Shown here: positions 2,777 through 22,620 of the stretch, piece by piece
How positions within the stretch are numbered: the stretch's first letter is position 1
Layout: each line of letters begins with the position of its first letter
Assembly: GCA_963837045.1 (NCBI GenBank)
Contig: CAWIMA010000009.1
Coordinates: forward strand, 1,267-65,266
DNA length: 64,000 bases
From: an uncultured Gammaproteobacteria bacterium
GTDB taxonomy: Bacteria; Pseudomonadota; Gammaproteobacteria; Steroidobacterales; Steroidobacteraceae
Direction: 5' to 3'
The notes under the pieces: model-generated
What the model was told of the DNA's origin: nothing
Seen by the model: the letters and a program-made list of their open reading frames with translations, nothing else
The model's database searches: none
Position numbers and translations under genes: made by a program

Positions 2777-3016
2777 TCAGCTCCGAGTGCTTCGACGCTT
2801 AGTGCCGCCACGCCCCACCGGATTCTCCTCACCGGGAGTCCAAGGGCGCCCGAGGCGCGTCTCGATATATCCACGAATCATGCGTCGTACCACCTGTGAA
2901 GGGGTGAGGTCCTCCTGAGCACATAGCCGTTCGAACACTGCTTTCTTGCGCGGATCGATCAGGGTCGTAAGCCGCGCTGTGCGCTCTTCGAGATGAACAA
3001 CCTTGGGGAATTTCAT
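2777..3016 (-). CDS. Ribbon-helix-helix (CopG/MetJ-like) transcriptional regulator, copy 1
   Basis: 79 aa: RLTTLIDPRKKAVFERLCAQEDLTPSQVVRRMIRGYIE gives a beta-strand plus two helices, with a basic tail. Divergent from Ehr cluster 1. Close paralog at 13211..13441. Confidence 0.8.
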   Translation of the reverse strand: MKFPKVVHLEERTARLTTLIDPRKKAVFERLCAQEDLTPSQVVRRMIRGYIETRLGRPWTPGEENPVGRGGTKRRSTRS

Positions 3017-3033
3017 TTACATGCGAATTACAT
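3017..3033. promoter_or_regulatory. Direct repeat TTACAT-N5-TTACAT (11-bp register) in the RHH1/Ehr1 divergent promoter region
   Basis: TTACAT occurs at 3017-3022 and 3028-3033, immediately upstream of the RHH1 start, inside an AT-rich patch. One-helical-turn spacing is typical of RHH operators. This is a candidate only. Confidence 0.25.
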
Positions 3034-3205
3034 CGTAGGATAATAAAAGAATAATCCGAGTGGAATCATTGCGCAACATTCTCGCATCGTGGTCCGTCGG
3101 CGGGGTGCCTTGCGACAGCTCGGATCTGATCGACGGATCACAATGCGGCCCTTGCTAGGGCCGCTGCGGGAAAAGCGAAATGAGCCATCCGGTGTACGAT
3201 CGGTG

Positions 3206-5236
3206 ATGTCGCTCGCGAGCCCTGCGTGCTTGAGTCAATTAGCCGCCGGCGGCATTGCACTATTGCTCGTCCTCGCGGCGTGCGGAATCCTCGCTGCACG
3301 CCGTCCGCTTGGAGTGCGGCTGACCTACGCCGCTTGCATGCTAATCTCGTCCGGGCTCGCAGGCGTGGCGCTCATCGCGCTGCTCGCACCGCATTCTCGG
3401 CTCGAATCCATCGAAATTCCGCTCGGACTGCCGCTAAGTCGAACGCTTCTGGGCTTCGATCCACTGAGCGCCGCGTTCGCCGTCATCATCAACTTGGCGA
3501 CCGCAATCGTCAGCGGGTACGCCATCGGCTATGGCGCGCATGCCCACGAGCCGCAGCGGGTCGTGCCGTTTTACCCGGCGTTCATCGCCGGCATGAATCT
3601 AGTGCTGCTCGCCCAAGATGCGTTTTCATTTCTCATCGGCTGGGAATTCATGTCACTCGCCTCTTGGGCGCTCGTGGTCAGCGACCACCATTCCAGTGAA
3701 AACCGACGCGCTGCGCTCCTCTATCTCATCATGGCGACGGGGGGAGCTCTGACGCTGCTGCTGGCGTTCGGGTTGCTCGCTGGCCCCGAAGGCGGATACG
3801 CGTTCGAGACGATCCGACGCTCGAGCGCTTCGGGCGTGGGGGCGATCGTTCTCGTCCTCGCGCTGGTGGGGGCCGGCTCCAAAGCAGGTCTCGTGCCGCT
3901 ACATGCCTGGCTGCCGCTCGCGCACCCGGCCGCGCCGAGTCACGTTTCGGCATTGATGAGTGGGGTCATGACGAAAGTGGCAGTCTACGGCTTTGTGCGG
4001 CTGGTCTTCGACCTCGCGGGGCCTCCCGCGTGGTGGTGGAGCGTTCCGGTGCTGGTCATTGCCGGCATCACGGCACTCCTGGGTGTTCTGTATGCGTTGA
4101 TGGAACACGATTTGAAGCGCCTGCTCGCGTACCACACGGTCGAGAACATCGGCATCATCTTTATCGGTCTGGGACTTGCGCTCGCGTTCGAGGCGACGGG
4201 ACTGCGCGTGGCGGCGGCCCTTGCACTCACGGCAGCAATTTTCCACGTGTTCAATCATTCCCTATTCAAGAGTCTGCTGTTCATGGGTTCCGGCGCGGTA
4301 CTGAATGCCACCGGTGAGCGGGATATGGAACACCTCGGAGGCTTGATTCACCGCATGCCGGTCACCGCACTGGCGTTCCTCGCCGGATGCATCGCCATCT
4401 CCGCGCTGCCACCCTTCAACGGGTTCGTCTCCGAGTGGCTCACGTTTCAGGCCATTCTTGTCAGTCCGCAACTGCCGCAGTGGGTTCCGCGACTCCTGGT
4501 GCCGGCCATCGGTGCAATGCTTGCGTGCTCGGCGGCCCTCGCGGCGGCGTGCTTCGTCAAAGCCTTCGGGATGACGTTTCTGGGCCGGCCACGCTCTGAT
4601 GCTGCAACGAGCGCGCGCGAGACGGATTATTGGTCGCTAAGCGCCATGCTCGCGCTGGCGGCGCTGTGTCTGCTCGCGGGGATTCTGCCGGGCTTCGTGA
4701 TCGACGCGCTAGACCCCCTGACACAGATGCTTGTCGGTGCACGGCTCGCGCCGCAGGCCACACAGCCCTGGTTGCGGATTGTGCCCATCGACCCGTCACG
4801 CAGTGCATACAACGGCGCCCTCGTTTTCGTCATGATCTTGATCGCAGCAGCCGCCACGGCGTTTGCGGTGCGCCGGTTTGCCTCGCATACGCTTCGACGC
4901 TCTCCAGCGTGGGACTGCGGCTTCCCGGACGCGAGCCCCGCGACCCAATATACGGCCGGGAGCTTCGCACAGCCCATCCGGCGTGTGTTTGGAAGCGTCG
5001 TGTTTCGCGCACGGGAGCATGTCGTGATGCCGGCGCCCGGGGATACGTCCGTGGCCAGACTGCGCGTCGATTTGCACGATACGATCTGGGAAGCGCTCTA
5101 TCTACCCGTGATTCGTGCGGTCAACGCAATCGCCGATCGCCTGAACCAGGTGCAGTTCCTCACGATTCGAACCTATCTGACGCTCGTGTTCGCGGCACTG
5201 GTCCTGCTGCTGATTGTCGTCGGAGCGTGGCGATGA
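3206..5236 (+). CDS. Ehr cluster 1: HyfB/NuoL-like antiporter-type membrane subunit
   Basis: Polytopic protein with NuoL/HyfB blocks (WEFMSLASWALV, GSKAGLVPLHAWLPLAHPAAPSHVSALMSGVMTKVA, RLLAYHTVENIGII). Start chosen at ATG 3206 (MSLASPA...); ATG 3143 or GTG 3089 are also possible. Confidence 0.9.
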   Translation: MSLASPACLSQLAAGGIALLLVLAACGILAARRPLGVRLTYAACMLISSGLAGVALIALLAPHSRLESIEIPLGLPLSRTLLGFDPLSAAFAVIINLATAIVSGYAIGYGAHAHEPQRVVPFYPAFIAGMNLVLLAQDAFSFLIGWEFMSLASWALVVSDHHSSENRRAALLYLIMATGGALTLLLAFGLLAGPEGGYAFETIRRSSASGVGAIVLVLALVGAGSKAGLVPLHAWLPLAHPAAPSHVSALMSGVMTKVAVYGFVRLVFDLAGPPAWWWSVPVLVIAGITALLGVLYALMEHDLKRLLAYHTVENIGIIFIGLGLALAFEATGLRVAAALALTAAIFHVFNHSLFKSLLFMGSGAVLNATGERDMEHLGGLIHRMPVTALAFLAGCIAISALPPFNGFVSEWLTFQAILVSPQLPQWVPRLLVPAIGAMLACSAALAAACFVKAFGMTFLGRPRSDAATSARETDYWSLSAMLALAALCLLAGILPGFVIDALDPLTQMLVGARLAPQATQPWLRIVPIDPSRSAYNGALVFVMILIAAAATAFAVRRFASHTLRRSPAWDCGFPDASPATQYTAGSFAQPIRRVFGSVVFRAREHVVMPAPGDTSVARLRVDLHDTIWEALYLPVIRAVNAIADRLNQVQFLTIRTYLTLVFAALVLLLIVVGAWR

Positions 5237-6186
5237 TGCTCACCTGGCTCACACAGCTAGCGCAGGCCGCCCTCGTGCTCACTCTCGCGCCGCTCTTGTC
5301 CGGTGTGACGCGCAAGATCAGAGCGCGCCTCCTGCGCCGACAGGGTCCGTCCATCGTTCAGCCATATCGGGATCTCGCAAAACTGATCCGCAAAGAGGCC
5401 GTCGTCGCCGAGAATGCATCATGGCTGTTTCGTGTCGCCCCCTATGTGGTATTTGCGACGACGTGGGTCGCCGCCGCGTTGGTCCCCACATTTGCAACGG
5501 GGCTTACGTTGAGTGCGTCCGCAGATCTCATCGTGATCGTCGCCCTGCTCGGCACCGCTCGTTTCCTGCTCGCGCTCGCGGGACTGGATGTCGGCACGAG
5601 TTTTGGCGGAATCGGCTCGAGCCGCGAAATGATGTTCGCCTCGCTCGCGGAGCCGGCCATGCTGATGGCGGTTTTCACGCTCTCGCTATTTGCAGGCTCG
5701 ACCGAGCTCTCCTCCATCTCAGCCTACATGCTGGGGCCTAATGCCGGTCTCAGCATCTCACTCGCACTCGCATTCGTGGCGCTCGTCATCGTTTCGCTCG
5801 GAGAAAACGCCCGCATTCCCGTCGACAACCCGGCGACGCATCTCGAGCTGACCATGGTGCACGAGGCCATGATTCTCGAATACTCCGGCCGGCACCTCGC
5901 GGTGATCGAATTCGCTGCCTCGCTGAAGCTTTTGCTGTACCTGTCGTTGATCGCGTGTGTGTTCATCCCGTGGGGAACAACGCTTGCCGGCGATGGCGCC
6001 CTTGCCTACACCATCGCGCTCGGCGCCTATGCGACCAAGCTGACGGTGTTGGCATTCTTTCTGGTTCTCTTCGAGACCGCCATCGCCAAGATGCGCGTGT
6101 TTCGTGTACCAGATTTCCTTGGCGTAGCGCTCATGCTGGGGCTCCTCGGCACCATTATGTTGTTCGTATCCCGGGTGCGCGGATGA
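5233..6186 (+). CDS. Ehr cluster 1: HyfC/HycD/NuoH-like membrane subunit
   Basis: MMLTWLTQLAQAAL...RKIRARLLRRQGPSIVQPYRDLAKL.. and ENARIPVDNPATHLELTMVHEAMILEYSG are NuoH/HycD signatures. ATGA overlap with the upstream stop. The track ORF 4630..6186 was trimmed. Confidence 0.9.
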   Translation: MMLTWLTQLAQAALVLTLAPLLSGVTRKIRARLLRRQGPSIVQPYRDLAKLIRKEAVVAENASWLFRVAPYVVFATTWVAAALVPTFATGLTLSASADLIVIVALLGTARFLLALAGLDVGTSFGGIGSSREMMFASLAEPAMLMAVFTLSLFAGSTELSSISAYMLGPNAGLSISLALAFVALVIVSLGENARIPVDNPATHLELTMVHEAMILEYSGRHLAVIEFAASLKLLLYLSLIACVFIPWGTTLAGDGALAYTIALGAYATKLTVLAFFLVLFETAIAKMRVFRVPDFLGVALMLGLLGTIMLFVSRVRG

Positions 6187-6845
6187 CTACTCTCGACAGC
6201 GATATTGCCCATCTGCTCGCGGGTTCCCTGGTGCTCGTGAGCTTCCTGCTGCTGTATCAGGATCGCATGTTCGCATTACTCAATGTCTTTGCACTCCATG
6301 CGATCGTCCTGGCGCTATCCGTCGCCTGGCAGGCGCATATGCAACACGCGCCGCATCTCTTTATTACGGCGCTGATTGCCTTGCTGTTCAAAGGCGTGAT
6401 GATCCCGGCCGCGCTGCATCGAATCGTCGTACGGCTGCGAATTCACCGCACCATCGAAACCGTAGTGAGCATTGGCCCTACGATGCTATTCGGGATGGGT
6501 CTCGTTGCGCTTTCGGTCGTTGTCATGCTGCCGCTGACACAAGCCGCCGGCGCGTTTGTGAGGGAGGACCTCGCCTTCGCACTGTCAGTCCTGCTCCTCG
6601 GATTCTTGATGATGGTTACGCGCCGCAATGCCGTGAGCCAAGTCATCGGATTCATGTCGCTTGAGAATGGTCTCGTGCTCGCCGCGACCGGCGCCCGCGG
6701 CATGCCATTGGTTGTGGAGATCAGCGTCGGATTCTCCGTGCTCATCGCCTTCCTCGTCATCGGCATTTTCCTGTTCCGAATCCGGGAACGATTCGACACG
6801 GTCGAACTGCAGGCGCTCGACATGTCGCGGGGCGAATCGGAGTGA
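6183..6845 (+). CDS. Ehr cluster 1: HyfE/HycP-like small membrane subunit
   Basis: 220 aa, multi-TM, with the VIGFMSLENGLVLAA motif typical of HyfE-type subunits. ATGA overlap with the upstream gene. Confidence 0.8.
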   Translation: MTTLDSDIAHLLAGSLVLVSFLLLYQDRMFALLNVFALHAIVLALSVAWQAHMQHAPHLFITALIALLFKGVMIPAALHRIVVRLRIHRTIETVVSIGPTMLFGMGLVALSVVVMLPLTQAAGAFVREDLAFALSVLLLGFLMMVTRRNAVSQVIGFMSLENGLVLAATGARGMPLVVEISVGFSVLIAFLVIGIFLFRIRERFDTVELQALDMSRGESE

Positions 6846-8293
6846 CCGTGTCCGTCGGAACGCTGGCGCTCGCAGGACTCCTCGGCACCCCTGCGATTGG
6901 CGCGGTCTTGCTTGCGGCTATTCCGACCTACCGGGTCGCGGCCGTCCTCAACATGATTCTGTGCGCGATTACGCTCGCAAGCGCGGCGCTTCTGTACTCG
7001 CACCGCCCGGAGCCCTCGCTTTATTTGCTCGTCGATGACCTCAATACGGTTTTCCTCATCATCGGTACGCTGGTAGGCTTCACCACGAGCCTGTTCAGTG
7101 CAGGCTACATCGCGCACGAGCTGCAATCGCGCAAGCTCAGATCGCGGGATCTGCGCTTCTATCACGCCCTGTACCAGTTCCTCATGTTCGCGATGGATCT
7201 CGCGCTGGTGTCGAACAACATCGGGCTCATGTGGGTGGCGATCGAGCTCGCGACACTCACGACGGTCGTGATGGTGGGCATCTACCGCACCAACGCGGCG
7301 CTCGAAGCATCATGGAAATATTTCATCCTGGGCTCGGTCGGCATTGGCCTCGCGCTGTTTGGCACGATCTTGGTCTACCTCGCCGCTCAGGAACGTCTGG
7401 GCGAGGGCATGCTGGCCATGGCCTGGGACCGACTCGCGGCCCACTCAGCGGGCTTTGATCCGGCGCTGCTCAACCTGTCGTTTATATTTCTGTTGCTCGG
7501 CTACGGCACCAAGGTCGGCCTTGTGCCGGTGCATGCCTGGCTGCCGGATGCCCACGCGGAGGGCCCGACGCCGATCTCTGCCGTGCTGTCGGGCTTGTTA
7601 CTCAATGTGGCGCTGTTCGCGCTGTTGCGATTCAGGCTGATCATGGCGGGAAACCCGGCGGTCCTCTCCCCCGGCCCGATGATGGTCACGATGGGCGCAC
7701 TCTCGCTGGTCTTCGCGGGCTTCATGATCTACCGCAGGCGTGACATCAAGCGCATGTTTGCATACTCCTCGATCGAGCACATGGGGATCATCACCTTAGC
7801 ATTCGGACTCGGAGGACCACTCGCAAATTTCGCCGGGCTCCTACACATGGCCATGCACAGCCTCACGAAATCGGCCATCTTCTTTGGCGTGGGATACATC
7901 TCCCAGCTGGAGGGGACGCAGCGCATCGCGGACATCCGGGGGCTGACGCAGAGCGAGCCGCTCCTCGGATGGTTGCTGGTCGTCGGGGCCGTCGCGATTG
8001 CGGGGCTCCCACCCTTCGGGATCTTCACGAGTGAGTTTCTGCTTATAACCTCGACCTTTGCCCGCTCGCCATGGCTCGCCATTCTGTTGGTTCTAGGCCT
8101 CATGATTGCCTTCAGCGCGCTCGCACTGCGCCTGCACGGCCTCGCTTTCGGAGAGACGGCCAAGCGCCATGCGCTGCCAGCCTGGCGTCTCGCACCCATG
8201 GCCCTGCACTTGGGCTTGGTCGCAATCGCCGGCATCTATCTGCCGGTGGCCGTTGTCGCATGGTTTCGTCACGTGGCCACACAGCTCGGGTAG
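6842..8293 (+). CDS. Ehr cluster 1: HyfF/HycQ/NuoN-like antiporter-type membrane subunit
   Basis: 483 aa: GYGTKVGLVPVHAWLPDAHAEGPTPISAVLSG, MFAYSSIEHMGII. GTG start overlapping the upstream stop. Confidence 0.9.
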   Translation: MTVSVGTLALAGLLGTPAIGAVLLAAIPTYRVAAVLNMILCAITLASAALLYSHRPEPSLYLLVDDLNTVFLIIGTLVGFTTSLFSAGYIAHELQSRKLRSRDLRFYHALYQFLMFAMDLALVSNNIGLMWVAIELATLTTVVMVGIYRTNAALEASWKYFILGSVGIGLALFGTILVYLAAQERLGEGMLAMAWDRLAAHSAGFDPALLNLSFIFLLLGYGTKVGLVPVHAWLPDAHAEGPTPISAVLSGLLLNVALFALLRFRLIMAGNPAVLSPGPMMVTMGALSLVFAGFMIYRRRDIKRMFAYSSIEHMGIITLAFGLGGPLANFAGLLHMAMHSLTKSAIFFGVGYISQLEGTQRIADIRGLTQSEPLLGWLLVVGAVAIAGLPPFGIFTSEFLLITSTFARSPWLAILLVLGLMIAFSALALRLHGLAFGETAKRHALPAWRLAPMALHLGLVAIAGIYLPVAVVAWFRHVATQLG

Positions 8294-8301
8294 GCGCTCT
8301 A

Positions 8302-9813
8302 ATGCTCAAAGCCCTATTCGGAGATCTCTCAGCCGCGCCAACCCACCACCCGTGGCCGCGTGTCACAGCGGATTCAGAGCGGTGGCGCGGCATCGGTGAG
8401 GCGCTGCGCGAAGGCAAGCTCGACTTGCTCGGCCTCTGGGCTGATTTGGCTTACGTGCATTGCGCCCTGTACGAGCCCGCGACTCGCAACGTAGTGAGCG
8501 CATCGATCAAGGTCAGCGCGGGCAGGGTCCCGTCGCTCGCAGTCTTTCATGCGCCCGCATCTCGCTTGGAGCGGGCGATCGGCGATTTGTTCGGCGTCGA
8601 ATTTGTCGGACTGCCCGATCCACGGCCGTGGATCGATCACGGATGCTGGCCTATCCATACGCCATTGGCTGAACTGCCGGGGCCGGGAGCGCCGTTGCCG
8701 CCCTACCGGTTTCTCGGGGCGCAAGGTCCGAGCCTGCATCAGATTCCGGTCGGTCCGGTGCATGCCGGGATCATCGAACCCGGTCATTTCCGCTTCACGG
8801 CGAGCGGCGAAACCGTTGTCCGACTCGAAGAGCGCCTCGGCTATACCCACAAGGGCATCGACAAACTGCTCGAGGACCAATCGATTGACCAAGCTGCACG
8901 AGTTGCGGCACGCGTGTCGGGGGACAGTACCGTGGCGTATTCGTTTGCCTTCGCTCGCGCCGTGGAGGCCGCTCTCGAAGTTAACCCGCCGCCGCGCGCG
9001 GTGTGGCTACGGGCGGTGATGGCCGAGCTCGAGCGAATCGCGAATCACTTAGGAGACGTCGGCGCCATTTGCAACGACGCTGCGTTCTCGATGATGCACG
9101 CGGAGTGCGCAATCCTGCGCGAAGTGGTATTGCGCGCCTGTGCCGTCGCGTTCGGCCATCGTCTGATGATGGACCGCATTGTCCCGGGCGGCGTCGCCGC
9201 GGATCTTGAACCTGCCGGACAGGAGGCAATCCTCGGCATGACGCGGCGGGTGCGGCGGCAATTCCCCGAGCTGATCGAACTCTACGACAACACGGCCTCA
9301 CTTCAGGACCGTACAGTCGGCACCGGTGTCGTGTCCACAGCGCTCGCTGCACAGTTTGCTGCGCCCGGATACGTCGGGCGCGCGTCCGGACGCGCATTTG
9401 ATGCCCGACTCGCCCTGCCCTACGCCCCGTATGACGCAGCGCCGATCGAAATCGCCGTGCGGACGGAAGGCGACGTCGATGCGCGCGTCTGGGTAAGGAT
9501 TCAGGAGATCCTAAAGAGCATCAGTTGGCTCGAGGCGGCGCTCGCCTCCATTCCACCCGGCCCTTTGCGTTTGCCGGTCAACACTGCGGCCGGTACAAGC
9601 GTCGAGGGCTCGGCTCTGGTCGAAGGGTTTCGGGGAGACATTCTTGGGTACGTGCGCATCGGCCCGAGAGGGCGCATCGATCGCTGCCACTTACGCGATC
9701 CGTCATGGTTTCTGTGGCCGCTCTTGGAAGCTGCCATCGAGGGCAACATCGTTGCGGACTTTCCGTTGTGCAACAAGTCATTCAATTGCTCCTATTCCGG
9801 GCATGATTTGTAG
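8302..9813 (+). CDS. Ehr cluster 1: fused NuoC-NuoD / HycE-like 'large subunit' lacking the NiFe cysteine ligands
   Basis: NuoC-like N-domain (RLERAIGDLFGVEFVGLPDPRPW) plus NuoD/HycE core (VGPVHAGIIEPGHFRF, ERLGYTHKGIDKLLE). RVSGDS (8911-8928) sits where RxCGxC is expected. The C-terminus is PLCNKSFNCSYSGHDL instead of DPCxxC. Confidence 0.9.
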   Translation: MLKALFGDLSAAPTHHPWPRVTADSERWRGIGEALREGKLDLLGLWADLAYVHCALYEPATRNVVSASIKVSAGRVPSLAVFHAPASRLERAIGDLFGVEFVGLPDPRPWIDHGCWPIHTPLAELPGPGAPLPPYRFLGAQGPSLHQIPVGPVHAGIIEPGHFRFTASGETVVRLEERLGYTHKGIDKLLEDQSIDQAARVAARVSGDSTVAYSFAFARAVEAALEVNPPPRAVWLRAVMAELERIANHLGDVGAICNDAAFSMMHAECAILREVVLRACAVAFGHRLMMDRIVPGGVAADLEPAGQEAILGMTRRVRRQFPELIELYDNTASLQDRTVGTGVVSTALAAQFAAPGYVGRASGRAFDARLALPYAPYDAAPIEIAVRTEGDVDARVWVRIQEILKSISWLEAALASIPPGPLRLPVNTAAGTSVEGSALVEGFRGDILGYVRIGPRGRIDRCHLRDPSWFLWPLLEAAIEGNIVADFPLCNKSFNCSYSGHDL

Positions 9814-9839
9814 TTGCGCTCACCCTCGGTAACCTCATC

Positions 9840-10379
9840 ATGCGCAGGCGCCTGTTCAAAAACCTCTTCACCACCCCATGTACCGAGCCCGTGACCGAGG
9901 GGGCAGCGCCGCTGGAGCTCGCGGGCGCGCAGCTTCGAGGCGTGATCGCGCGAAGCCTCGGTCGCAGTCTCGCGATCCGCGAGGTCGATGCGGGTTCCTG
10001 CAACGGCTGCGAGCTTGAAATTCACGCGCTCAGCAATGCCTTTTACGATGTCGAGCGCTTCGGAATCCGCTTCGTGGCCTCCCCGCGCCATGCCGATCTG
10101 CTGCTCGTGACCGGCCCTGTCACGCTCAACATGCGCGAGGCCCTGGAGCGCACCTATGCGGCAACGCCGGCGCCCAAGTGGGTGGTGGCGGTCGGAGACT
10201 GTGGTGCCGGCTGTGGGCTGTTCGCAGACAGCTATGCGTGCGTCGGCGCAGTCTCGAAAGTGATTCCAGTCGACCTCGTGATTCGCGGCTGCCCGCCCAC
10301 CCCTACGGACCTGCTACAGGGATTGCTCGAACTCCTCAACGGCGGCGCCGCGCTCAGCGTGAACACCCAGCACTCCTGA
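9840..10379 (+). CDS. Ehr cluster 1: NuoB/HycG-like small subunit with [4Fe-4S] ligands
   Basis: 179 aa: DAGSCNGCELEI, FVASPRHADLLLVTGPV, VAVGDCG, RGCPP. All four N2-type cluster cysteines are present. Confidence 0.9.
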   Translation: MRRRLFKNLFTTPCTEPVTEGAAPLELAGAQLRGVIARSLGRSLAIREVDAGSCNGCELEIHALSNAFYDVERFGIRFVASPRHADLLLVTGPVTLNMREALERTYAATPAPKWVVAVGDCGAGCGLFADSYACVGAVSKVIPVDLVIRGCPPTPTDLLQGLLELLNGGAALSVNTQHS

Positions 10380-10419
10380 GCGTCTACTGCCCGCTGCGCA
10401 ACCGCGACACGAAGGTTTC

Positions 10420-12625: not shown

Positions 12626-12631
12626 GTGACT

Positions 12632-13198: not shown

Positions 13199-13210
13199 CG
13201 GGGTCGCGCG

Positions 13211-13441
13211 TCACGCGCGTCCGCCACGCCGTACCCCGCCCCGGACCGCCGGCTTCGACGCTTGGTCGGGGGGTGTCCAGGGCTGCCCGGTCCGCTCCTC
13301 GATATAGCGGCGAATCAAGCGCCGCACCACCTGGGAGGGGGTGGCGTCCTCTTCCGCACACAAGCGTTCGAACAACGCCTTTTTGCGCGGATCGACGAGG
13401 ATCGTCAGTCGTGCGGTCCGATCTTCGAGTGCCACGGCCAT
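13211..13441 (-). CDS. Ribbon-helix-helix (CopG-like) transcriptional regulator, copy 2
   Basis: 76 aa: RLTILVDPRKKALFERLCAEEDATPSQVVRRLIRRYIE. About four-fifths identical by eye to copy 1 over the 52-aa core. Divergent from Ehr cluster 2. Confidence 0.8.
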   Translation of the reverse strand: MAVALEDRTARLTILVDPRKKALFERLCAEEDATPSQVVRRLIRRYIEERTGQPWTPPDQASKPAVRGGVRRGGRA

Positions 13442-13455
13442 CCTTAAGAGCTAGC

Positions 13456-13470
13456 GACAGGGTACCTGTC
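13456..13470. promoter_or_regulatory. Inverted repeat GACAG-GGTAC-CTGTC in the RHH2/Ehr2 divergent promoter region
   Basis: 5-bp arms around a GTAC-containing centre, 15 bp from the RHH2 start and 43 bp from the hyfB-like start. Candidate operator only; it does not resemble the copy-1 repeat. Confidence 0.2.
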
Positions 13471-13512
13471 TGTCATTATAATCGAACACGAATCCGCATA
13501 ACACCCATTGTG

Positions 13513-15516
13513 ATGCCACTTATCCATTCATCGCTCAGCGCGTGCCTCGTGCTGATCGCTCTCTGGGGCCTCCTCGGCCTCGCCGGACTTCTGCGCCCCA
13601 TGAGCGTGGGTTTTGTGGGGCGGACGCTCTTTCCGCTGGGGGCCCTGTGTGGCGCGGCCCTTGCGATCGTGGCGGCCGTGAGCCTCGCGGCACCTGCCGA
13701 GCAGCTGACGCTTACCGTCGGACTGCCCGACCTGCCGATGCACATGCGGCGCGATGCGCTGACGAGCCTCTTTCTTCTTTTGCTCGGGGCCGCTTCGGCG
13801 GGCATCTCGGTCTTCGCTGCGGGGTACTTTCGACGTGGTCACGGCACCGCGCCCGGCCTGTTATGCCTGCAATACCATGTATTCCTGGCCAGCATGGGTT
13901 TGGTGCTGCTGGCCAATGATGCCTACGCGTTCATGGTGGCGTGGGAAACGATGGCGCTCTCGTCCTACTTTCTGGTCACCACGCAACACGGTCTCGCGGA
14001 GATCCGTCGCGCGGGCTTTCTCTATCTGCTGATCGCGCACGTCGGGGCGATCGCAATCCTGTTGAGCTTCGGCGTGATGCAGGGTGGCAGTTGGCAGTTC
14101 ACCTTCGATGCCATGCGCGGCGCGCACCTTGCGCCACAATGGGCGGCGACCGCCTTCCTGCTCGCACTCTTCGGCTTCGGGGCGAAAGCCGGGCTCGTGC
14201 CCCTGCACGTGTGGCTACCTGAGGCGCACCCGGCCGCCCCCTCGCCCGTTTCGGCGCTCATGAGCGGTGTGATGCTGAAAACCGCCGTCTACGGCGTGCT
14301 GCGCGTGACCTTCGATCTGCTGGGGCATGCCCAATGGTGGTGGGGCCTCGTGCCGCTCGCCTTCGGGCTTTTCAGCGCGCTGTACGGAGTGGTATTCGCC
14401 GCGGCCCAAACCGACATGAAACGACTGCTCGCGTACTCTTCGATCGAGAACATGGGCATCATCTTCACCGGCTTCGGGCTTGCGATCGTATTCCTCGGCG
14501 TCGGCATGCCCTCCCTCGGAGCGCTCGCCCTGATCGCGCTGCTGTATCACAGCCTCAATCACGCGTTCATGAAGAGCTTGCTGTTTCTCGGTACCGGGGC
14601 GGTTTTGCATTCGACCGGTGAACGCAACCTCGGGCGCCTGGGCGGACTGATCCATCGGATGCCGTGGGTCGCGTGGCTGACCCTCATCGGTGCGCTCGCC
14701 ATGGCCGGGCTCCCGCCACTGAACGGTTTCGTCTCCGAGTGGCTCCTTCTACAGTCGTTTCTCTTTTCGAACGAAGTGCCCCGGCCTTTCATCAACATGC
14801 TGCTTCCCTTGGGCGCGGCGCTTATCGCACTCGCCGCCGCGCTCGCCGCCTATGTCATGGTCAAGTTCTTTGGAGTCATCTTCCTGGGCCAGCCGCGCGA
14901 GGAGAGCTTGAACCGCGCGCACGATGCGGGCGTGCTCGAGCGCATCGGCCTTATCTGGCTCGCGCTCGGCTGCTTCGCATTGGGCCTCCTGCCGACGCAT
15001 GTGATCGGCGCGCTGCGCAGCGTGGTCGAGCAATTGAGTGGCGCCGAACTGCCGAGCGCGCACGCTCCCTGGTGGCTCCTCGTACCGTTGCCGGAACGGC
15101 GCGCCTCCTATTCCCCGCTCGTCTTCTTCCTTGCGATCGCCGCAGTCGTCGTGGTCACGATGTTCGCCGTGCGGCTCTTCTATCACCGTCGGGTGCGTCG
15201 CGCGCCGCCGTGGGATTGCGGATTCGGAGGCTTAAATTCGCGGATGCAGGACAGCGCGGAAGGCTTCGGTCAGCCGATTCGCCACATTTTCGGGTCTTTC
15301 TTTGCGATGAAGCGCGAACTGCCCTCCCCGTTTGATCACGCACCGCGCTACCGTGTCACGGCAGGGGACCGGATCTGGCTGGCGCTGTACCTGCCGCTTG
15401 GCACCCTCGTGCGGCGCGTGGCGGATACCGTCGTGTGGTTGCAGCAGGGGCGCATCTCCACCTACCTGCTCTACAGTTTCGTGACCCTCGTTGTGTTGCT
15501 GGCGCTCGTCGTATGA
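13513..15516 (+). CDS. Ehr cluster 2: HyfB/NuoL-like membrane subunit
   Basis: MPLIHSSLSACLVLIAL...; WETMALSSYFLV, GAKAGLVPLHVWLPEAHPAAPSPVSALMSGVMLKTA, RLLAYSSIENMGII. Track ORF 13273..15516 trimmed to ATG 13513. Confidence 0.9.
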   Translation: MPLIHSSLSACLVLIALWGLLGLAGLLRPMSVGFVGRTLFPLGALCGAALAIVAAVSLAAPAEQLTLTVGLPDLPMHMRRDALTSLFLLLLGAASAGISVFAAGYFRRGHGTAPGLLCLQYHVFLASMGLVLLANDAYAFMVAWETMALSSYFLVTTQHGLAEIRRAGFLYLLIAHVGAIAILLSFGVMQGGSWQFTFDAMRGAHLAPQWAATAFLLALFGFGAKAGLVPLHVWLPEAHPAAPSPVSALMSGVMLKTAVYGVLRVTFDLLGHAQWWWGLVPLAFGLFSALYGVVFAAAQTDMKRLLAYSSIENMGIIFTGFGLAIVFLGVGMPSLGALALIALLYHSLNHAFMKSLLFLGTGAVLHSTGERNLGRLGGLIHRMPWVAWLTLIGALAMAGLPPLNGFVSEWLLLQSFLFSNEVPRPFINMLLPLGAALIALAAALAAYVMVKFFGVIFLGQPREESLNRAHDAGVLERIGLIWLALGCFALGLLPTHVIGALRSVVEQLSGAELPSAHAPWWLLVPLPERRASYSPLVFFLAIAAVVVVTMFAVRLFYHRRVRRAPPWDCGFGGLNSRMQDSAEGFGQPIRHIFGSFFAMKRELPSPFDHAPRYRVTAGDRIWLALYLPLGTLVRRVADTVVWLQQGRISTYLLYSFVTLVVLLALVV

Positions 15517-16463
15517 AGCCAATCGAGATTATCACCCAGGTGCTCGAGCTGATCGCGGCGCTCGCCGCGGCGCCACTCTTTCTCGGCTGGATCAACCAGT
15601 GTCGCGCGCAACTGCAAAACCGTCGCCCACCGAGCCTGTGGCTGCCCTACCGAGGCATTCGCAAACTCTTTCATAAGGATGCCGTGATCGCCGAACGCGC
15701 ATCCCCCCTGTTTCGCGTGGCGCCCTACATCGTGTTCAGCGCGATGGTCCTCGCCGCCGCGATCATTCCCTCGATGGGCACGGAGCTGCCATTCACCAAG
15801 GCGGCGGATGCAATCGCGCTCGTGGGGCTGCTCGCCACGGCACGAGTCTTTTTATCGCTCGCAGCGATGGACATCGGCACCGCCTTCGGCACGCTCGGAG
15901 CGCGCCGCGAGATGATGGTGGGATTCCTCGCCGAGCCCGCCCTGCTGATGGTTATCTTCGTCGCCTCCCTCATTTCGGCAACCACCGCGCTGCCCGCCAT
16001 CACCGAGAATCTGGCTACGCAGCATCTGGGGATCTATCCGAGTCTCGCCTTCACGGCGGTCGCCTTCACGATGGTGTTGCTCGCCGAAAATGCGCGCATT
16101 CCCATCGACAATCCGGCGACGCATCTCGAACTCACGATGATTCATGAGGCCATGATGCTCGAGTACTCGGCACGCCACCTTGCGCTCATGGAGTGGGCGG
16201 CCGCTCTCAAGCTCTTCAACTACGCGTGCATCGGGTTTGCGCTCTTTATCCCATGGGGAGTCTCGACCGGCGAGGGCGGTCCTCTCGCACTTCTCGCCTC
16301 GATTCCGCTGCTCGCCCTGAAGCTTGCGGTGGCCGGAGTCGCCCTCGCCCTGATCGAGACGCTCTCGGCGAAGCTGCGGGTGTTTCGTGCACCGGAGTTT
16401 CTCGCCGTTGCGTTCCTATTTGCGGTGCTGGGCCTGCTCGTGCACCTGCTATTGGCAGCTTAG
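15513..16463 (+). CDS. Ehr cluster 2: HyfC/HycD/NuoH-like membrane subunit
   Basis: ENARIPIDNPATHLELTMIHEAMMLEYSARH. ATGA overlap with the upstream gene. Same length class as copy 1. Confidence 0.9.
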   Translation: MKPIEIITQVLELIAALAAAPLFLGWINQCRAQLQNRRPPSLWLPYRGIRKLFHKDAVIAERASPLFRVAPYIVFSAMVLAAAIIPSMGTELPFTKAADAIALVGLLATARVFLSLAAMDIGTAFGTLGARREMMVGFLAEPALLMVIFVASLISATTALPAITENLATQHLGIYPSLAFTAVAFTMVLLAENARIPIDNPATHLELTMIHEAMMLEYSARHLALMEWAAALKLFNYACIGFALFIPWGVSTGEGGPLALLASIPLLALKLAVAGVALALIETLSAKLRVFRAPEFLAVAFLFAVLGLLVHLLLAA

Positions 16464-16468
16464 AAGCG

Positions 16469-17173
16469 ATGGCCGGCGTCCCCTTCGATCTGCAACTGCT
16501 GAACCTCTGTGCGGCGCTGCTCCTGTTGCTTTCCTTTGCGATGCTCGCGCAGCGGCGCATCGTGAACCTGGTGAACCTCCTCGCCGTACAGGGCACGGTG
16601 CTCCTGGTCGCCACACTTCTGCTCGCGTGGCGCACCGGCCAGCATCATCTTTATGTGTCTGCGGCGCTCACCCTCGCGCTCAAGGTGGTACTGCTGCCCT
16701 GGATTTTGCACCGGCTCATTCGCCGCCTGCAGGTCTATTGGGATACCGAGCCGCTGCTCAACATCCCGGGCACCATGCTCGTGGGCGTCCTGGTCGTCGT
16801 GTTCGCCTTTGGCCTGGCGCAGCCGATCTCAGCGCTAGCCAGTACCGCGACGCGCAACTCGATCGGCATCGCGGTCGCTGTGGTGCTGCTGTCATTCGTC
16901 ACAATGATCACGCGGCGCAAGGCGATGTCGCAGGTGGTTGGATTTCTCTCGATGGAGAACGGGCTTTTTTTTGGGGCCATGAGCGCCACCTACGGCATGC
17001 CGATGATCGTCGAGTTCGGGGTGGCGCTCGATGTCCTAGTCGCCGTGCTGGTACTCGGCATTTTCTTCTTCCAGATCCGCGAGCAGTTCGACAGTCTGGA
17101 TCTGCATCATCTCGAGTCGCTCAAAGAGAGCCATTCACTCGAGGAAACTCAGTCCCTCGAGGAGGATGATTAA
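16469..17173 (+). CDS. Ehr cluster 2: HyfE/HycP-like small membrane subunit with acidic tail
   Basis: VVGFLSMENGLFFGAM motif. An extra C-terminal HHLESLKESHSLEETQSLEEDD is absent from copy 1. Confidence 0.8.
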   Translation: MAGVPFDLQLLNLCAALLLLLSFAMLAQRRIVNLVNLLAVQGTVLLVATLLLAWRTGQHHLYVSAALTLALKVVLLPWILHRLIRRLQVYWDTEPLLNIPGTMLVGVLVVVFAFGLAQPISALASTATRNSIGIAVAVVLLSFVTMITRRKAMSQVVGFLSMENGLFFGAMSATYGMPMIVEFGVALDVLVAVLVLGIFFFQIREQFDSLDLHHLESLKESHSLEETQSLEEDD

Positions 17174-18632
17174 CGTGGAGTTCCTGCTCCTGCTCGCAAG
17201 CCCCCTCGCCGGCGCACTCCTCCTGGGCGTCTTCGGCGCGCGGCGCTGGGCGCCTGAGCTCAATGTGGCCATGAGCCTCGCGACATTCCTCGCCGCTTGT
17301 GCGCTCACGGCACGCGTCGTGGGCGAAGGGAATCTCCTTGTAGCACGTGAGCAATTCTTCATCGATCCGTTCAACGTCTTTCTCGTCACACTCACCGCCT
17401 TTGTTGGACTCACGACGTCGTTGTTTTCGCGTCCCTACATGCGCGTGGAGCTCGAGCACGGGCGCGTGAGCGCGCCTCGGCTGCGTCTGTATCACAGCAT
17501 GTTTCAGCTCTTCATGACGACTATGTTAATTGCGCTCACGACCAACAACATGGGACTTCTGTGGGTCGCCATGGAAGCTGCAACGCTTTCCACCGTGCTG
17601 CTCGTCACGCTCTACCGGACGGCGGCGAGTCTCGAGGCCGGCTGGAAATATTTCATCCTCTGCGGCGTCGGTATTGCCCAGGCACTGTTCGGCACGATTC
17701 TGCTGTACTTCGCCGCCGAGAAGATTCTCGGTGCGCAAGGAGTGACTGCGCTCCTGTGGACGCACTTGAATGCGGTGAAGGGGCAGCTCGAGCCCGCCGT
17801 GTTGAGTCTCGCGTGGGTCTTTCTGCTCGTCGGCTACGGCACGAAGGTGGGCCTCGCGCCGCTCCACAACTGGCTCCCCGATGCGCATGCGGAAGGCCCC
17901 ACGCCGATCTCGGCCGTACTCTCGGGGCTGCTGCTCAATGTGGCCATCTACGCGATCGTGCGCTGCAAGGTGCTCGTCGAAGGTTCGCTGCACTCGCAAC
18001 TCCCCTCGCGAATGTTGATGGGTTTCGGTCTGCTCTCGGTCGTGCTCGCGGCGTTTTTTCTGTGGCGTCAGCGCGATGTCAAGCGGCTCTTCGCCTACTC
18101 CTCGATTGAACACATGGGGATCATCACCTTCGCCTTCGGCATGGGGGGGCCGGTCGCCAATTTCGCCGCGCTCCTGCATATGACGGTGCACTCGCTCACC
18201 AAGTCGGCGATCTTCTTTGCCGTCGGGCACGCCGCGCAGAAAGCCGGCTCGCAGCTGATAGAGAACATCCGGGGGCTCATCACCTTGAGCCCGACAATCG
18301 GTTGGGGCCTGATGCTGGGGTCGCTCGCGATCCTCGGTATGCCCCCCTTCGGCGTCTTTGCGAGCGAATTTCTGATCCTCACTACCGCGATGCGAGATCA
18401 GCCCTGGGCGACGCCCATTCTGCTCACCGCGCTCGGCGTCGCCTTCGCCGCCATCTTCGGACGCGTGCAGCCCATGGTATTCGGTGAAACGACGGCTCGG
18501 CGTTTACCGCACCCGCCGTCCCTGGTGCCGGTCTTTGCGCACCTCGCCATCGTGCTGGCGCTCGGCTTGTATATACCGCCCTATCTGGCGGACTGGTATC
18601 GCGCGGCGGCGCGCCTGATCGGGGGCGGCTGA
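17166..18632 (+). CDS. Ehr cluster 2: HyfF/HycQ/NuoN-like membrane subunit
   Basis: 488 aa: GYGTKVGLAPLHNWLPDAHAEGPTPISAVLSG, LFAYSSIEHMGII. Confidence 0.9.
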   Translation: MINVEFLLLLASPLAGALLLGVFGARRWAPELNVAMSLATFLAACALTARVVGEGNLLVAREQFFIDPFNVFLVTLTAFVGLTTSLFSRPYMRVELEHGRVSAPRLRLYHSMFQLFMTTMLIALTTNNMGLLWVAMEAATLSTVLLVTLYRTAASLEAGWKYFILCGVGIAQALFGTILLYFAAEKILGAQGVTALLWTHLNAVKGQLEPAVLSLAWVFLLVGYGTKVGLAPLHNWLPDAHAEGPTPISAVLSGLLLNVAIYAIVRCKVLVEGSLHSQLPSRMLMGFGLLSVVLAAFFLWRQRDVKRLFAYSSIEHMGIITFAFGMGGPVANFAALLHMTVHSLTKSAIFFAVGHAAQKAGSQLIENIRGLITLSPTIGWGLMLGSLAILGMPPFGVFASEFLILTTAMRDQPWATPILLTALGVAFAAIFGRVQPMVFGETTARRLPHPPSLVPVFAHLAIVLALGLYIPPYLADWYRAAARLIGGG

Positions 18633-18633
18633 G

Positions 18634-20172
18634 ATGGCGCTGCGAGCCTGGTTCGCTCGAAGCGGCGCCCAACCGGGCGCCCCGGGTCTGCGCGCACTGA
18701 GCGTCTCACGCGAGGAGTGGCGCCAGGTGGCCGAGGATTCGGCGGCCGCAGGCGGCAGACTCATCGCCCTCTGGGCGAGCGAGGACGAGCGTGCCGCGCC
18801 CATCCTTCGCGCCGTGTTTCTCGCCGAAAAAAGCGGCCTTGTGCTCAGCCTCCCGGTCACCGATCCGCAAGTGCCGTACCCCGGACTCGAAGATCTCTTT
18901 CCGGCCGCAGAGCGCATGCAGCGCGCGCTGGCGGACCTCTCGGGATTGCGTTCTACAGATTCGGATACGCGTCCCTGGCTGCGCCACGCGGCATGGCCCC
19001 CAAGCTATCGGCCGCTGATCGATCCGCAACTGTTGCCGACGGCCGCTATACCGGACCTCGACACCTATGAATTCGTGCGTGTCGAGGGCGAGGGCGTACA
19101 CGAGATCCCCGTCGGTCCCGTGCACGCCGGCATCATCGAGCCGGGGCACTTCCGATTCTCGGTCGTGGGCGAGAAGGTATTAAGGCTCGAGGAGCGCCTG
19201 GGTTACGTGCACAAGGGCATTGAACGGCGATTTACCGAGCTATCTCTACTCGAAGGCCACCGTCTGGCCGCGCGGGTATCCGGGGATTCCGCCGTCGCGT
19301 TCTCCTGGGCCTACTGCCAGGCACTTGAGGGCATCGCGGGTACGCAGATTCCGCCGCGTGCCGCATGGCTGCGGGCACTGTGCCTGGAACTCGAACGGAT
19401 TGCGAACCACCTCGGGGACCTCGGCGCACTTGGCAACGATGCCGGTTTCGCATTCGGTCTGACGCAGTTCTCGCGCCTGAAGGAACACCTCCTGCGGGCC
19501 ACTCACGAAGCGCTCGGGGAGCGCTATCTGATGGGCGCCATCGTGCCCGGCGGGACACGCGCAGATCTCGCCGATTCCGGCGCAAGGCGGCTCGCCGTGT
19601 GTGTGCACGAACTCGCAGACGAAGCATTGACGTTGCGTGCGATCTACGACGAGCACGAGGGCGTGCGCGACCGGTTCACCGGGGCCGGTGTCGTCGCTCC
19701 GGAGCTCGCCGCGCGCTTGGGGCTCACCGGGCTCGCGGGTCGCGCAAGCGCCCAGGCGTTCGATCTGCGCGTCGACCTGCCATGCGAGCCGTACACAGAG
19801 CTTGCGCCGGTGAAAATCGGATTGATGGAGGGAGATGTGGCGGCACGTGTCGCAGTGCGCTTTGATGAGTTGAGCGAATCCTGCCGTCTCATCCGGCATA
19901 TTCTGCACGGGCTCCCGGTTGGGCCACACCGGGCTCCAGTACGCATGCCCGCCGATCGCGCTGTGGGAGCAGGACTGATCGAAGGCTGGCGCGGTCCCGT
20001 GTTCGTTGCGCTCGAAGCGGGAGCGGCAGGCGCAATCCGCCGCTGTCATCCGCACGATCCGTCGTGGCAGAACTGGCCCGTGATTGAGCACGCCATCATC
20101 GACAACATCGTCCCGGATTATCCGCTCATCAATAAGTCCTTCAATCTCTCCTACAGTGGCCATGATCTGTAG
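18634..20172 (+). CDS. Ehr cluster 2: fused NuoC-NuoD / HycE-like 'large subunit' without any NiFe cysteine ligand
   Basis: VGPVHAGIIEPGHFRF, ERLGYVHKGIERRF. RVSGDS at 19273-19290. The C-terminus is PLINKSFNLSYSGHDL, with no Cys at all in this motif. Confidence 0.9.
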   Translation: MALRAWFARSGAQPGAPGLRALSVSREEWRQVAEDSAAAGGRLIALWASEDERAAPILRAVFLAEKSGLVLSLPVTDPQVPYPGLEDLFPAAERMQRALADLSGLRSTDSDTRPWLRHAAWPPSYRPLIDPQLLPTAAIPDLDTYEFVRVEGEGVHEIPVGPVHAGIIEPGHFRFSVVGEKVLRLEERLGYVHKGIERRFTELSLLEGHRLAARVSGDSAVAFSWAYCQALEGIAGTQIPPRAAWLRALCLELERIANHLGDLGALGNDAGFAFGLTQFSRLKEHLLRATHEALGERYLMGAIVPGGTRADLADSGARRLAVCVHELADEALTLRAIYDEHEGVRDRFTGAGVVAPELAARLGLTGLAGRASAQAFDLRVDLPCEPYTELAPVKIGLMEGDVAARVAVRFDELSESCRLIRHILHGLPVGPHRAPVRMPADRAVGAGLIEGWRGPVFVALEAGAAGAIRRCHPHDPSWQNWPVIEHAIIDNIVPDYPLINKSFNLSYSGHDL

Positions 20173-20181
20173 CTCCCCCTC

Positions 20182-20721
20182 ATGATAAAAACACTGCGTC
20201 AAATTGCATCGATCGGCATCGCCACCGAACCAACGCCGCAGGCGGACGAGAGCTTGCGCATTCGCGACGTCCTGCGGGATCGCATTCGTGACGCGCTCGG
20301 TCGGGCGCTCTGCATCCGGCACATCGACGCTGGCTCCTGCAACGGCTGCGAGCTCGAAATACACGCCCTCAACAACCCTCTCTACAACTTGGAAGGGCTT
20401 GGGATTCGGTTCGTCGCCAGCCCCCGTCACGCCGACCTGCTGCTGATCACAGGACCGGTGTCTAAACACATGGAAGTGGCCCTGCGCCGAACCTATGAGG
20501 CGACACCCGACCCCAAGCTCGTGGTCGCGCTTGGTGACTGTGGCTGCACCGGCGGCATTTTCGGCGAGAGCTACGCCAGTTGCGGGCGCGTTTCAAACGT
20601 CATCCCCGTCGATGTCGCGGTCCCTGGTTGCCCGCCGAGCCCAACGCGAATACTGCAGGGCATTCTTGCTGCCATTTCACGCTCTGCCCCAACGACAGTA
20701 GACACCCAAGTTCACTCATGA
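20182..20721 (+). CDS. Ehr cluster 2: NuoB/HycG-like small subunit with [4Fe-4S] ligands
   Basis: DAGSCNGCELEI, FVASPRHADLLLITGPV, ALGDCG, PGCPP. Confidence 0.9.
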   Translation: MIKTLRQIASIGIATEPTPQADESLRIRDVLRDRIRDALGRALCIRHIDAGSCNGCELEIHALNNPLYNLEGLGIRFVASPRHADLLLITGPVSKHMEVALRRTYEATPDPKLVVALGDCGCTGGIFGESYASCGRVSNVIPVDVAVPGCPPSPTRILQGILAAISRSAPTTVDTQVHS

Positions 20722-22490: not shown

Positions 22491-22496
22491 GAGCTC

Positions 22497-22620
22497 TGTC
22501 GCGCTCCTTGAGCAAGCGGTTTTCTTCCTGCAGATACTTGATCACCTCAAGCTGACGGCGGTCGACCCAACCGGCGCACATCAGGAGGAGCATTTGAAGA
22601 GGAAGACGCAGTGGAGACAT
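22497..22620 (-). mobile_element. Transposase/integrase N-terminal stump (IS scar)
   Basis: ORF 22411..22620 begins MSPLRLPLQMLLLMCAGWVDRRQLEVIKYLQEENRLLKERD. This is the hydrophobic leader plus 'Y/L-L-x-EEN-R-L-L-KE' coiled segment seen at the N-terminus of several DDE transposases. It then runs into the antisense of the neighbouring gene, and no catalytic domain follows. Confidence 0.3.

Follow-up and report, generated by a model that had tools for sequence, protein, structure and literature searches.

What is encoded by two hydrogenase-like operons that lie side by side, when the large subunits of both have lost the residues that hold a NiFe site? The question was raised by a 64,000-nucleotide stretch of DNA (the window) from an uncultured gammaproteobacterium of the Steroidobacteraceae (GenBank assembly GCA_963837045.1, contig CAWIMA010000009.1, positions 1,267 to 65,266). 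Open reading frame (ORF) calling and scans with Pfam and NCBIfam confirmed two co-oriented units with exact limits, unit 1 at 2777-10379 and unit 2 at 13211-20721. By sequence comparison, unit 1 is assigned as an orthologue of the rhizobial hyqBCEFGI operon, and unit 2 to a sister clade that is also devoid of three cysteines conserved in HyqG. With moderate confidence, we propose that the two operons each encode a six-subunit complex-I-like membrane complex of the Hyq or energy-converting hydrogenase related (Ehr) type, whose role would be redox-linked ion translocation and whose expression would be repressed by a ribbon-helix-helix (RHH) protein.

Each unit consisted of an RHH_9 gene divergent from genes for HyfB-, NuoH-, HyfE-, HyfF-, NuoCD/HycE-, and NuoB-like proteins, in the order B-C-E-F-G-I and with tight coupling in both. 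In unit 1, the minus-strand regulator gene RHH1 (2777-3016, 79 amino acids [aa]; PF19839, E=1.9e-22) was followed on the plus strand by hyqB1 (3206-5236, 676 aa), a HyfB/NuoL-like antiporter-type subunit matching PF00361 and scoring 845 bits, above the cut-off, with the NCBIfam model NF005086 for hydrogenase 4 subunit B; hyqC1 (5233-6186, 317 aa; NuoH/HyfC-like, PF00146, E=1e-40), which carries the motif IPVDNPATHLELTMVHEA; hyqE1 (6183-6845, 220 aa), a HyfE-like membrane subunit with no Pfam match and an NCBIfam match below the cut-off (NF008556, E=2.6e-20); hyqF1 (6842-8293, 483 aa), a HyfF/NuoN-like antiporter-type subunit scoring 763 bits, above the cut-off, with NF005043 for hydrogenase 4 subunit F; hyqG1 (8302-9813, 503 aa), a NuoC-NuoD fusion or HycE-like large subunit whose best solved relative was HycE (7Z0S_E, E=5.5e-55); and hyqI1 (9840-10379, 179 aa), a NuoB/HycG-like small subunit (PF01058, E=6.8e-31). 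The NCBIfam HyfB and HyfF scoring covers B and F of unit 1.

Unit 2 comprised, in the same arrangement, RHH2 (13211-13441, minus strand, 76 aa; PF19839, E=7.2e-23) and, on the plus strand, B2 (13513-15516, 667 aa; HyfB/NuoL-like, PF00361, E=6e-51), C2 (15513-16463, 316 aa; NuoH-like, PF00146, E=1e-28), E2 (16469-17173, 234 aa; HyfE-like, NF008556 below the cut-off at E=1.4e-27, no Pfam match), F2 (17166-18632, 488 aa; HyfF/NuoN-like, PF00361, E=7e-53), G2 (18634-20172, 512 aa; NuoCD/HycE-like, HycE match at E=2.5e-48), and I2 (20182-20721, 179 aa; NuoB-like, Oxidored_q6 family). The Pfam families were Proton_antipo_M for B and F, NADHdh for C, Complex1_30kDa plus Complex1_49kDa for G, and Oxidored_q6 for I, the Complex1_30kDa (NuoC) match of G2 falling below the Pfam cut-off. 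These assignments upheld the original prediction, made from the sequence alone, of a hydrogenase-like six-gene unit occurring twice in the same orientation about 10 kb apart: the register offset was 10.28 to 10.44 kb, subunit sizes matched within a few residues for most pairs (I, 179/179; C, 317/316), the ATGA stop/start overlap at the B/C junction was present in both units, and each copy had its own divergent RHH gene, both passing the Pfam gathering score.

The large subunit was central to the question of function. In HMMER alignments with Escherichia coli HycE (PDB 7Z0S_E), the four NiFe cysteine positions were occupied in both G1 and G2 by Ser and Ser at the N-terminal CxxC motif and by Ser and Gly at the C-terminal one, and they were likewise replaced across 159 aligned relatives. 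In place of the first CxxC motif stood RVSGDS, and NKSFNxSYSG replaced DPCxxC; in the same 159-relative alignment the motifs R-x-S-G-D-S and N-K-S-F-N-x-S-Y-S-G-H-D were almost invariant in both clades. Neither the L1 (RxCGxCxxxH) nor the L2 (DPCxxCxxR) motif of group 4 was found in either large subunit. The predicted loss of the NiFe ligands from both copies is therefore borne out by the 7Z0S alignments and the family-wide columns, which rule out cysteines that had simply been misaligned. A quinone site of the complex I type was also ruled out, the canonical His and Tyr being missing: on alignment with E. coli NuoCD, H228 and Y273 were replaced by Ile and Gly, respectively, in G1, G2, and the Rhizobium johnstonii homologue, and the NuoD NCBIfam scores of the G subunits were far below the cut-offs. 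Since the NiFe cysteines and the quinone His/Tyr are all replaced, the site in G resembles neither that of a hydrogenase nor that of complex I.

A large subunit of this kind has been described before. The hyqRBCEFGI operon is known from Azorhizobium caulinodans and also from Rhizobium leguminosarum, Bradyrhizobium (B. japonicum), Rhodopseudomonas palustris, Azospirillum, and Xanthobacter (PMC2650096, PMC3357923). HyqG was reported in 2012 as a 504-aa protein without both CxxC motifs (PMC3357923), in which Cys 258, 491, and 497 are completely conserved across the Hyq family, while HyqI has four conserved cysteines in all orthologues (PMC3357923). Hyq has been grouped with Ehr as group 4 subtypes without canonical Ni-Fe ligands (PMC4758237), and Ehr complexes are themselves defined as group-4-related complexes lacking NiFe ligands (PMC6349859, PMC10284858). 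HycE was the top solved match for both G subunits, and B and F were Mrp/Nuo antiporter-like. The assignment of the units to the Ehr type thus fits the literature definition, with HycE-related large subunits that lack NiFe ligands. It needs the correction that the unit is the described hyqBCEFGI, whose missing CxxC motifs were noted in 2012.

The HyqG cysteines separated the two units. G1 kept all three (Cys 257, 490, and 496), and these were conserved in 80 to 81 of 82 unit-1/Hyq-type sequences, whereas G2-type sequences had Gly, Ile, and Leu at the corresponding positions (74 to 76 of 77). On this pattern unit 1 would be a member of Hyq and unit 2 a sister type. In a neighbor-joining (NJ) tree of G, the whole family formed one clade (100/100), with HycE/HyfG as its sister group; the unit-2 clade was recovered in 100/100 bootstraps, and unit 1 joined rhizobial and other proteobacterial Hyq sequences in 82/100. 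Taken together, the signature cysteines and the tree argue that unit 1 is a Hyq orthologue, that unit 2 belongs to a sister family, and that no local duplication gave rise to the pair.

A genome scan extended the Hyq comparison. The B-C-E-F-G-I cluster was found in no fewer than 80 genome loci, single-copy in each locus listed, and the large subunit was 55 to 63% identical to G1 across these loci. They represented Alpha-, Beta-, and Gammaproteobacteria, with a few other phyla besides, and included Mesorhizobium, Bradyrhizobium, Rhodopseudomonas palustris, Azospirillum, and Rhizobium. Since the 80 loci listed did not take in the closest genomes, close relatives were drawn from contigs encoding homologues. 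A gene of about 100 aa of the XRE/HTH_3 type lay directly upstream in 49 of the 80 Hyq-type loci listed. On plasmid pRL11 of R. johnstonii 3841, a helix-turn-helix (HTH) regulator was followed by hyfB, a NuoH-like gene, HyfE, HyfF, a gene labelled NuoC, and a NuoB-family gene, with a large subunit 59.7% identical to G1. A seven-gene variant, with two consecutive HyfB-like genes before C-E-F-G-I, was observed at the alphaproteobacterial loci L036, L056, and L062 (about 2870-6820 in each).

Among the remaining subunits, cluster ligands and transport residues were preserved. I1 (Cys 54, 57, 121, and 151) and I2 (Cys 53, 56, 120, and 150) retained four [4Fe-4S] cysteines; in I2 these aligned with the residues that bind the cluster in MbhJ and HycG, and in I1 they stood at matching positions. 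In B1, B2, F1, and F2, the Glu of transmembrane segment (TM) 5, the Lys of TM7, and the Glu of TM12 of antiporter-type subunits were all present, and TM8 had Lys in B and Asn in F, as in HyfF. The C subunit carried a family-specific loop, IP(V/I)DNPATHLELTM(V/I)HEA, which replaces EAEQEL of NuoH and HycD. The best solved relatives were HycE and HycG of formate hydrogenlyase (FHL; 7Z0S) and MbhL and MbhJ. Each complex comprises the antiporter-type subunits B and F, a NuoH-like C, a HyfE-like E, a NuoC-NuoD fusion G, and a NuoB-like I.

The regulators and their control regions were also examined. RHH_9 (PF19839) scored 79.3 and 80.7 bits against a gathering cut-off of 23.4; of 3731 RHH_9 homologues, the few with a source name were CopG family regulators or ribbon-helix-helix proteins. 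Four sigma-70-like sites were found in 20 kb, two of them in the divergent spacers. The spacer of unit 1 (3017-3205) held TTTACA-17-GATAAT at 3016-3044, and its first ∼60 bp were nearly invariant in seven orthologous loci. That of unit 2 (13442-13512) held the promoter-like GCGACA-17-TATAAT at 13454-13482 together with a near-palindrome, GACAGGGTACCTGTC (13456-13470), and a palindromic octamer, ATTATAAT (13475-13482), which contains the perfect -10 box. The ATTATAAT octamer or a one-off variant recurred in the spacer between the RHH gene and B in ∼30 related unit-2-type loci, often preceded by a short palindrome. No FNR box and no sigma-54/NifA-type promoter motif was found in the two spacers. 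No co-directional HTH gene of the HyqR type stood first in either unit, its place being taken by the divergent RHH_9 gene. We infer divergent sigma-70 promoters overlapped by putative RHH operators, to which the conserved ATTATAAT octamer and the palindromes lend indirect support only.

In the mechanism proposed here, the single [4Fe-4S] cluster in I would shuttle electrons between the membrane and a partner or substrate in the cytoplasm. A remodelled pocket of G, lined by the S-G-D-S and N-K-S-F-N-x-S-Y-S-G-H-D residues, would hold the substrate, and electron transfer would be coupled to the movement of protons or cations via B and F, in the manner of formate hydrogenlyase and complex I. Each operon would be read from a sigma-70-type promoter in its short divergent spacer, where a dimer of its own RHH_9 protein may bind, probably repressing it. 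The two complexes would likely be specialized for different substrates or conditions.

Several points weigh against this proposal. Functional evidence for the family consists only of Azorhizobium physiology, and because the hydrogenase and quinone sites are both lost, a redox reaction at G is deduced solely from the cluster retained in I. Neither a NuoI/HycF-type ferredoxin subunit nor a linked donor module was found at the units. Small RHH proteins usually act as repressors, and the suggested repression draws on that usual behavior. Finally, the G tree was a simple NJ tree with three outgroups, rooted on E. coli NuoCD, and its bootstraps are out of 100.

The main rival for unit 1 is the published hydrogenase claim, that is, that at least this unit is a non-canonical enzyme, a Hyq endo-hydrogenase acting as an H2:quinone oxidoreductase at a site without the classical four cysteines. 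Deletion of hyq in A. caulinodans slowed diazotrophic growth, and its authors credit Hyq with bidirectional H2 uptake and evolution in vivo (PMC2650096, PMC3357923); the orthology of unit 1 to hyqBCEFGI and the three signature cysteines kept in G1 would extend that claim to the window. All four NiFe ligands are gone, however, as are the complex I quinone His and Tyr, and the Hyq authors themselves called a NiFe site "uncertain, if not unlikely" (PMC3357923). The enzyme has never been purified. No hyp or nif genes were found in the 64-kb window or among conserved neighbors, nor was a hydrogenase maturation endopeptidase or a ferredoxin-type HycF/NuoI-like subunit; the spacers lack a NifA/sigma-54-type promoter; and unit 2 has not even the three Hyq cysteines. 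A hydrogenase in unit 1 is therefore considered unlikely.

Less probable still are complexes that have given up redox chemistry and serve as Mrp-like cation/proton transporters, or have some other non-redox function, their Fe-S cluster being purely structural. Two Mrp/Nuo antiporter-type subunits with intact charged residues, the loss of both known catalytic sites, and an electron-input module that is not linked to the units would all be compatible with such a role. Against it, both units and all HyqI orthologues (PMC3357923) retain the four cluster cysteines, and the near-invariance of the G pocket residues in the two clades speaks for a working site in G. Redox-linked ion translocation by two Hyq/Ehr-type complexes remains the preferred reading.

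The relationship between the units was assessed from their divergence. Amino acid identity between unit 1 and unit 2 was 73% for the regulator, 44% for B, 50% for C, 40% for E, 49% for F, 44% for G, and 58% for I, and DNA identity, which was patchy, came to only 65 to 76%. All 14 ORFs were full length and intact, and the ratio of nonsynonymous to synonymous substitution rates (dN/dS), calculated against orthologues in related contigs, was 0.04 to 0.17 for all 14 genes (0.075 for RHH1 against L086). Both units are under strong purifying selection. More than 8000 homologues of each large-subunit type were detected at E <= 1e-10, the best 120 of each being at least 74% identical; source names included "Ni,Fe-hydrogenase III large subunit" and "NADH-quinone oxidoreductase subunit C," from Steroidobacteraceae metagenome-assembled genomes (MAGs). 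No exact database match to the G1 protein is on record.

The shared orientation, gene order, and near-identical sizes might suggest that unit 2 is a recent tandem duplicate, or that decay has left either or both units as remnants of a hydrogenase, but this is very improbable given subunit identities of only 40 to 58%, a tree in which unit 1 is nearer to rhizobial Hyq than to unit 2, intact ORFs with dN/dS of 0.04 to 0.17, the abundance of homologues of each type, and unit-2-type loci that mostly occur alone. Recent duplication is ruled out by the identities and the tree, and pseudogene status by the intact ORFs and dN/dS. The copies had originally been described as old paralogs, about 60% identical in the best core; their age agrees with the identities measured here, but the notion of tandem-duplicated copies does not, since unit 1 groups with Hyq. 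The units are instead old lineages that have been juxtaposed.

The pairing itself was not unique to the window. When metagenomes were scanned with G2, 80 loci were obtained, with identities of 63 to 85%. A divergent RHH_9 gene lay beside B in almost all of the ∼30 unit-2-type loci having upstream sequence, and most unit-2-type loci with long flanks carried that unit alone. The unit-1/unit-2 pair was found in tandem in the window and at loci L081, L085, L086, and L087; in two Steroidobacteraceae contigs, L082 and L083, the units instead converge, each still with its own divergent RHH gene; L084 carried an RHH gene and unit 1 alone. Two Ehr complexes side by side are thus not peculiar to this genome, as the pairing recurs in relatives in at least two arrangements, tandem (five cases) and convergent (two cases). 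The survey of related genomes showed that the divergent RHH_9 gene recurs with both unit types, and because the arrangements vary (tandem, convergent, or alone) and yet each unit keeps its RHH gene, the RHH-plus-six-gene module is what is conserved in this lineage, in both clades. Two of the RHH_9 homologues were traced to their loci: at L171, the gene faced a unit-2-type operon that was followed by a Spermine_synth gene, and at L172 it faced the N terminus of a B gene. The latter contig (GCA_035605075.1, DATNHG010000542.1; 3.1 kb) is labelled Candidatus Binataceae and yet has 82 to 87% DNA identity to the window; it may be mis-binned. The window otherwise matched Steroidobacteraceae MAGs.

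The spacer between the two units (10420-13198, minus strand; Pfam assignments) lies outside the complexes. It holds a full-length orphan sdhA (10420-12204, 594 aa) that is 83% identical to the copy in the sdhCDAB operon of L082 and has a dN/dS of 0.045, with no sdhB or sdhC alongside; a 144-aa ORF (12201-12635) with a weak Sdh_cyt match; and a truncated ACT/malic-enzyme gene (12632-13198). L085 and L086 lacked this stretch of ∼2.6 kb, and L081 had lost nearly all of it, keeping only a 74-aa SdhA tail. In L172, RHH2 was followed by an intact series of genes, described as RHH, malic enzyme with an ACT domain, low-molecular-weight phosphatase (LMWPc), and sdhA, and the stretch in the window is the remnant of these. 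A complete sdhCDAB operon was also observed just upstream of unit 1 in L082 and L083 (1-3000), a second and different sdh linkage in the lineage. A general partnership with sdh or malic enzyme was rejected, the linkage having been found in close relatives only.

Directly downstream of unit 2, two tandem spermidine-synthase-like genes of the class I methyltransferase fold (20758-22490, plus strand; PF01564), the second starting near 21624, were 53% identical to each other. In 11 of 44 unit-2-type loci, and likewise in L171 (at 1920-2792), the small-subunit gene was directly followed by a SpeE-like homologue, and in 10 Hyq-type genome loci a more distant methyltransferase took that position. An arginine methyltransferase takes part in the assembly of complex I, and the SpeE-like proteins are a possible accessory or modification partner of unit 2.

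DNA homology with close relatives began at 2745 or 2777 and ended at 10381 or 10587 for unit 1, ran from 13199 to 20696 or 20798 for unit 2, and then stopped; the flanks differed in every relative. On the left were a PhyH gene, a PAS gene in two overlapping ORFs, and an 87-aa ORF without a family match. The two PAS ORFs (1621-2378, minus strand; 157 and 132 aa) each contain part of a PAS domain and are probably one frameshifted sensor gene. On the right, the two SpeE-like genes were followed by an AbiEi/AbiEii pair, a type IV toxin-antitoxin system (22745-24249, minus strand) with an AbiEii nucleotidyltransferase (PF08843, E=1e-20) and a weak AbiEi-like NCBIfam match (E=0.004). Neither a tRNA nor flanking direct or inverted repeats were found at the block, and no transposase or integrase matched Pfam or NCBIfam in the flanks. 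A 69-aa ORF (22411-22620, minus strand) containing LEVIKYLQEENRLLKE and RRQLEVIKYLQEENRLLKE, which are reminiscent of some transposase N termini, had no match in NCBIfam or the plasmid collection, so that a transposase scar was not confirmed. Further right, GC content falls to 0.51 at 24000-25200, and a 199-aa ORF (24527-25126) is probably a gene fragment, its similarity to FAD-dependent (BBE-type) oxygenases being limited to their C-terminal ∼55 residues.

The original prediction had taken the block for an island bracketed by pseudogenes on the left and a transposase scar on the right. Homology does stop exactly at the block edges, and the PAS gene looks frameshifted, in line with the predicted pseudogene on the left, but no tRNA, repeat, or transposase was found with the block and the scar is unconfirmed. 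Acquisition as an island is therefore weakly suggested; on sequence comparison with relatives, the block appears to behave as a cassette in a variable context.

Elsewhere, the window carries a cluster related to nitrate respiration and denitrification (32856-43451 and 47890-48954) with nnrS, a major facilitator superfamily (narK-like) gene, narG (1248 aa), narH, narJ, and narI, together with a SLAC1-type anion channel gene and a multicopper oxidase gene that may encode a nirK-type nitrite reductase. With these genes, the host is at least a nitrate respirer.

New in this study are the sister clade without the Hyq cysteines, the regulator swap to RHH_9, the paired arrangement, and the recurrent SpeE-like neighbor. 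As a tentative and rather speculative suggestion, the unit-2 clade could represent an undescribed cysteine-free Hyq sister family with its own RHH_9 and, in about one-quarter of loci, a SpeE-like methyltransferase partner. Its near-invariant Ser/Asp/Asn/Tyr/His pocket beside the single [4Fe-4S] cluster might run a reaction other than H2 turnover or complex-I-type quinone reduction, and in the Steroidobacteraceae it might work in partnership with Hyq, the two performing a single energy-converting step, for instance, in forward and reverse direction or at high and low potential.

Ehr/Hyq complexes are placed between membrane hydrogenases and complex I, and the sole functional claim for them, H2 turnover by Hyq without NiFe ligands, is unconfirmed. 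The window offers a natural contrast in one genome, a Hyq orthologue with the three family cysteines beside a sister complex without them, both under selection. As each unit has a simple putative RHH-controlled promoter, the need for the cysteines, the involvement of H2, and the inducers become directly testable. Members of the family abound in soil Steroidobacteraceae-like bacteria, and the unit-2 type is common in soil metagenomes. Because these bacteria are not known diazotrophs, a role tied only to nitrogenase is weakened.

Compared with the Hyq operon, the units share six structural genes in identical order, a NuoC::D fusion of about 504 aa without CxxC motifs (503 aa in G1 and 512 aa in G2), and a small subunit with four conserved cysteines; unit 1 additionally shares the three HyqG signature cysteines and ∼60% identity with the R. 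johnstonii homologue. They differ in that a co-directional XRE-type HyqR is replaced here by a divergent RHH_9 and a NifA/sigma-54 promoter by a sigma-70-like one, in that the host is a Steroidobacteraceae-like putative denitrifier and not a known diazotroph, and in that two units stand side by side, of which unit 2 belongs to a separate clade without the three signature cysteines.

Among Ehr loci, Mycobacterium tuberculosis Rv0081-87 has reported homology to Ehr complexes (PMC6728331), and Rv0082-87 form an operon of six genes under the control of neighboring Rv0081 (PMC6901956). Shared with such loci are a group-4-hydrogenase-like membrane complex with a large subunit lacking NiFe ligands and, by description and not by comparison with the M. 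tuberculosis sequence, a small dedicated regulator upstream of a six-gene operon. The regulator type differs, and formate dehydrogenase genes accompany certain other Ehr loci but not this one. Gene order presumably also differs, the M. tuberculosis Ehr-like operon being one that we take to begin with the small subunit.

Hydrogenase 4 and FHL of E. coli (HyfABCDEFGHIJ and HycBCDEFG; 7Z0S) provide the closest solved structures; B and F of unit 1 scored above the NCBIfam HyfB and HyfF cut-offs, and the EPGHFR loop and the small-subunit cluster ligands are shared. The units differ from them in having no NiFe cysteines, no HyfA, HyfD, HyfH, or HycF, no formate dehydrogenase, and no nearby hyp or hycI maturation genes. 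Complex I is different in its quinone His and Tyr, which are Ile and Gly in G, where NuoD family scores are far below the cut-offs, and in its NuoA, E, F, G, and I, which are missing here, with NuoJ and NuoK represented only by the single HyfE-like subunit. In common with complex I, the units have a homologous core fold, a NuoC-NuoD fusion as in E. coli, the ligands of an N2-type cluster, and the residues of antiporter-type subunits.

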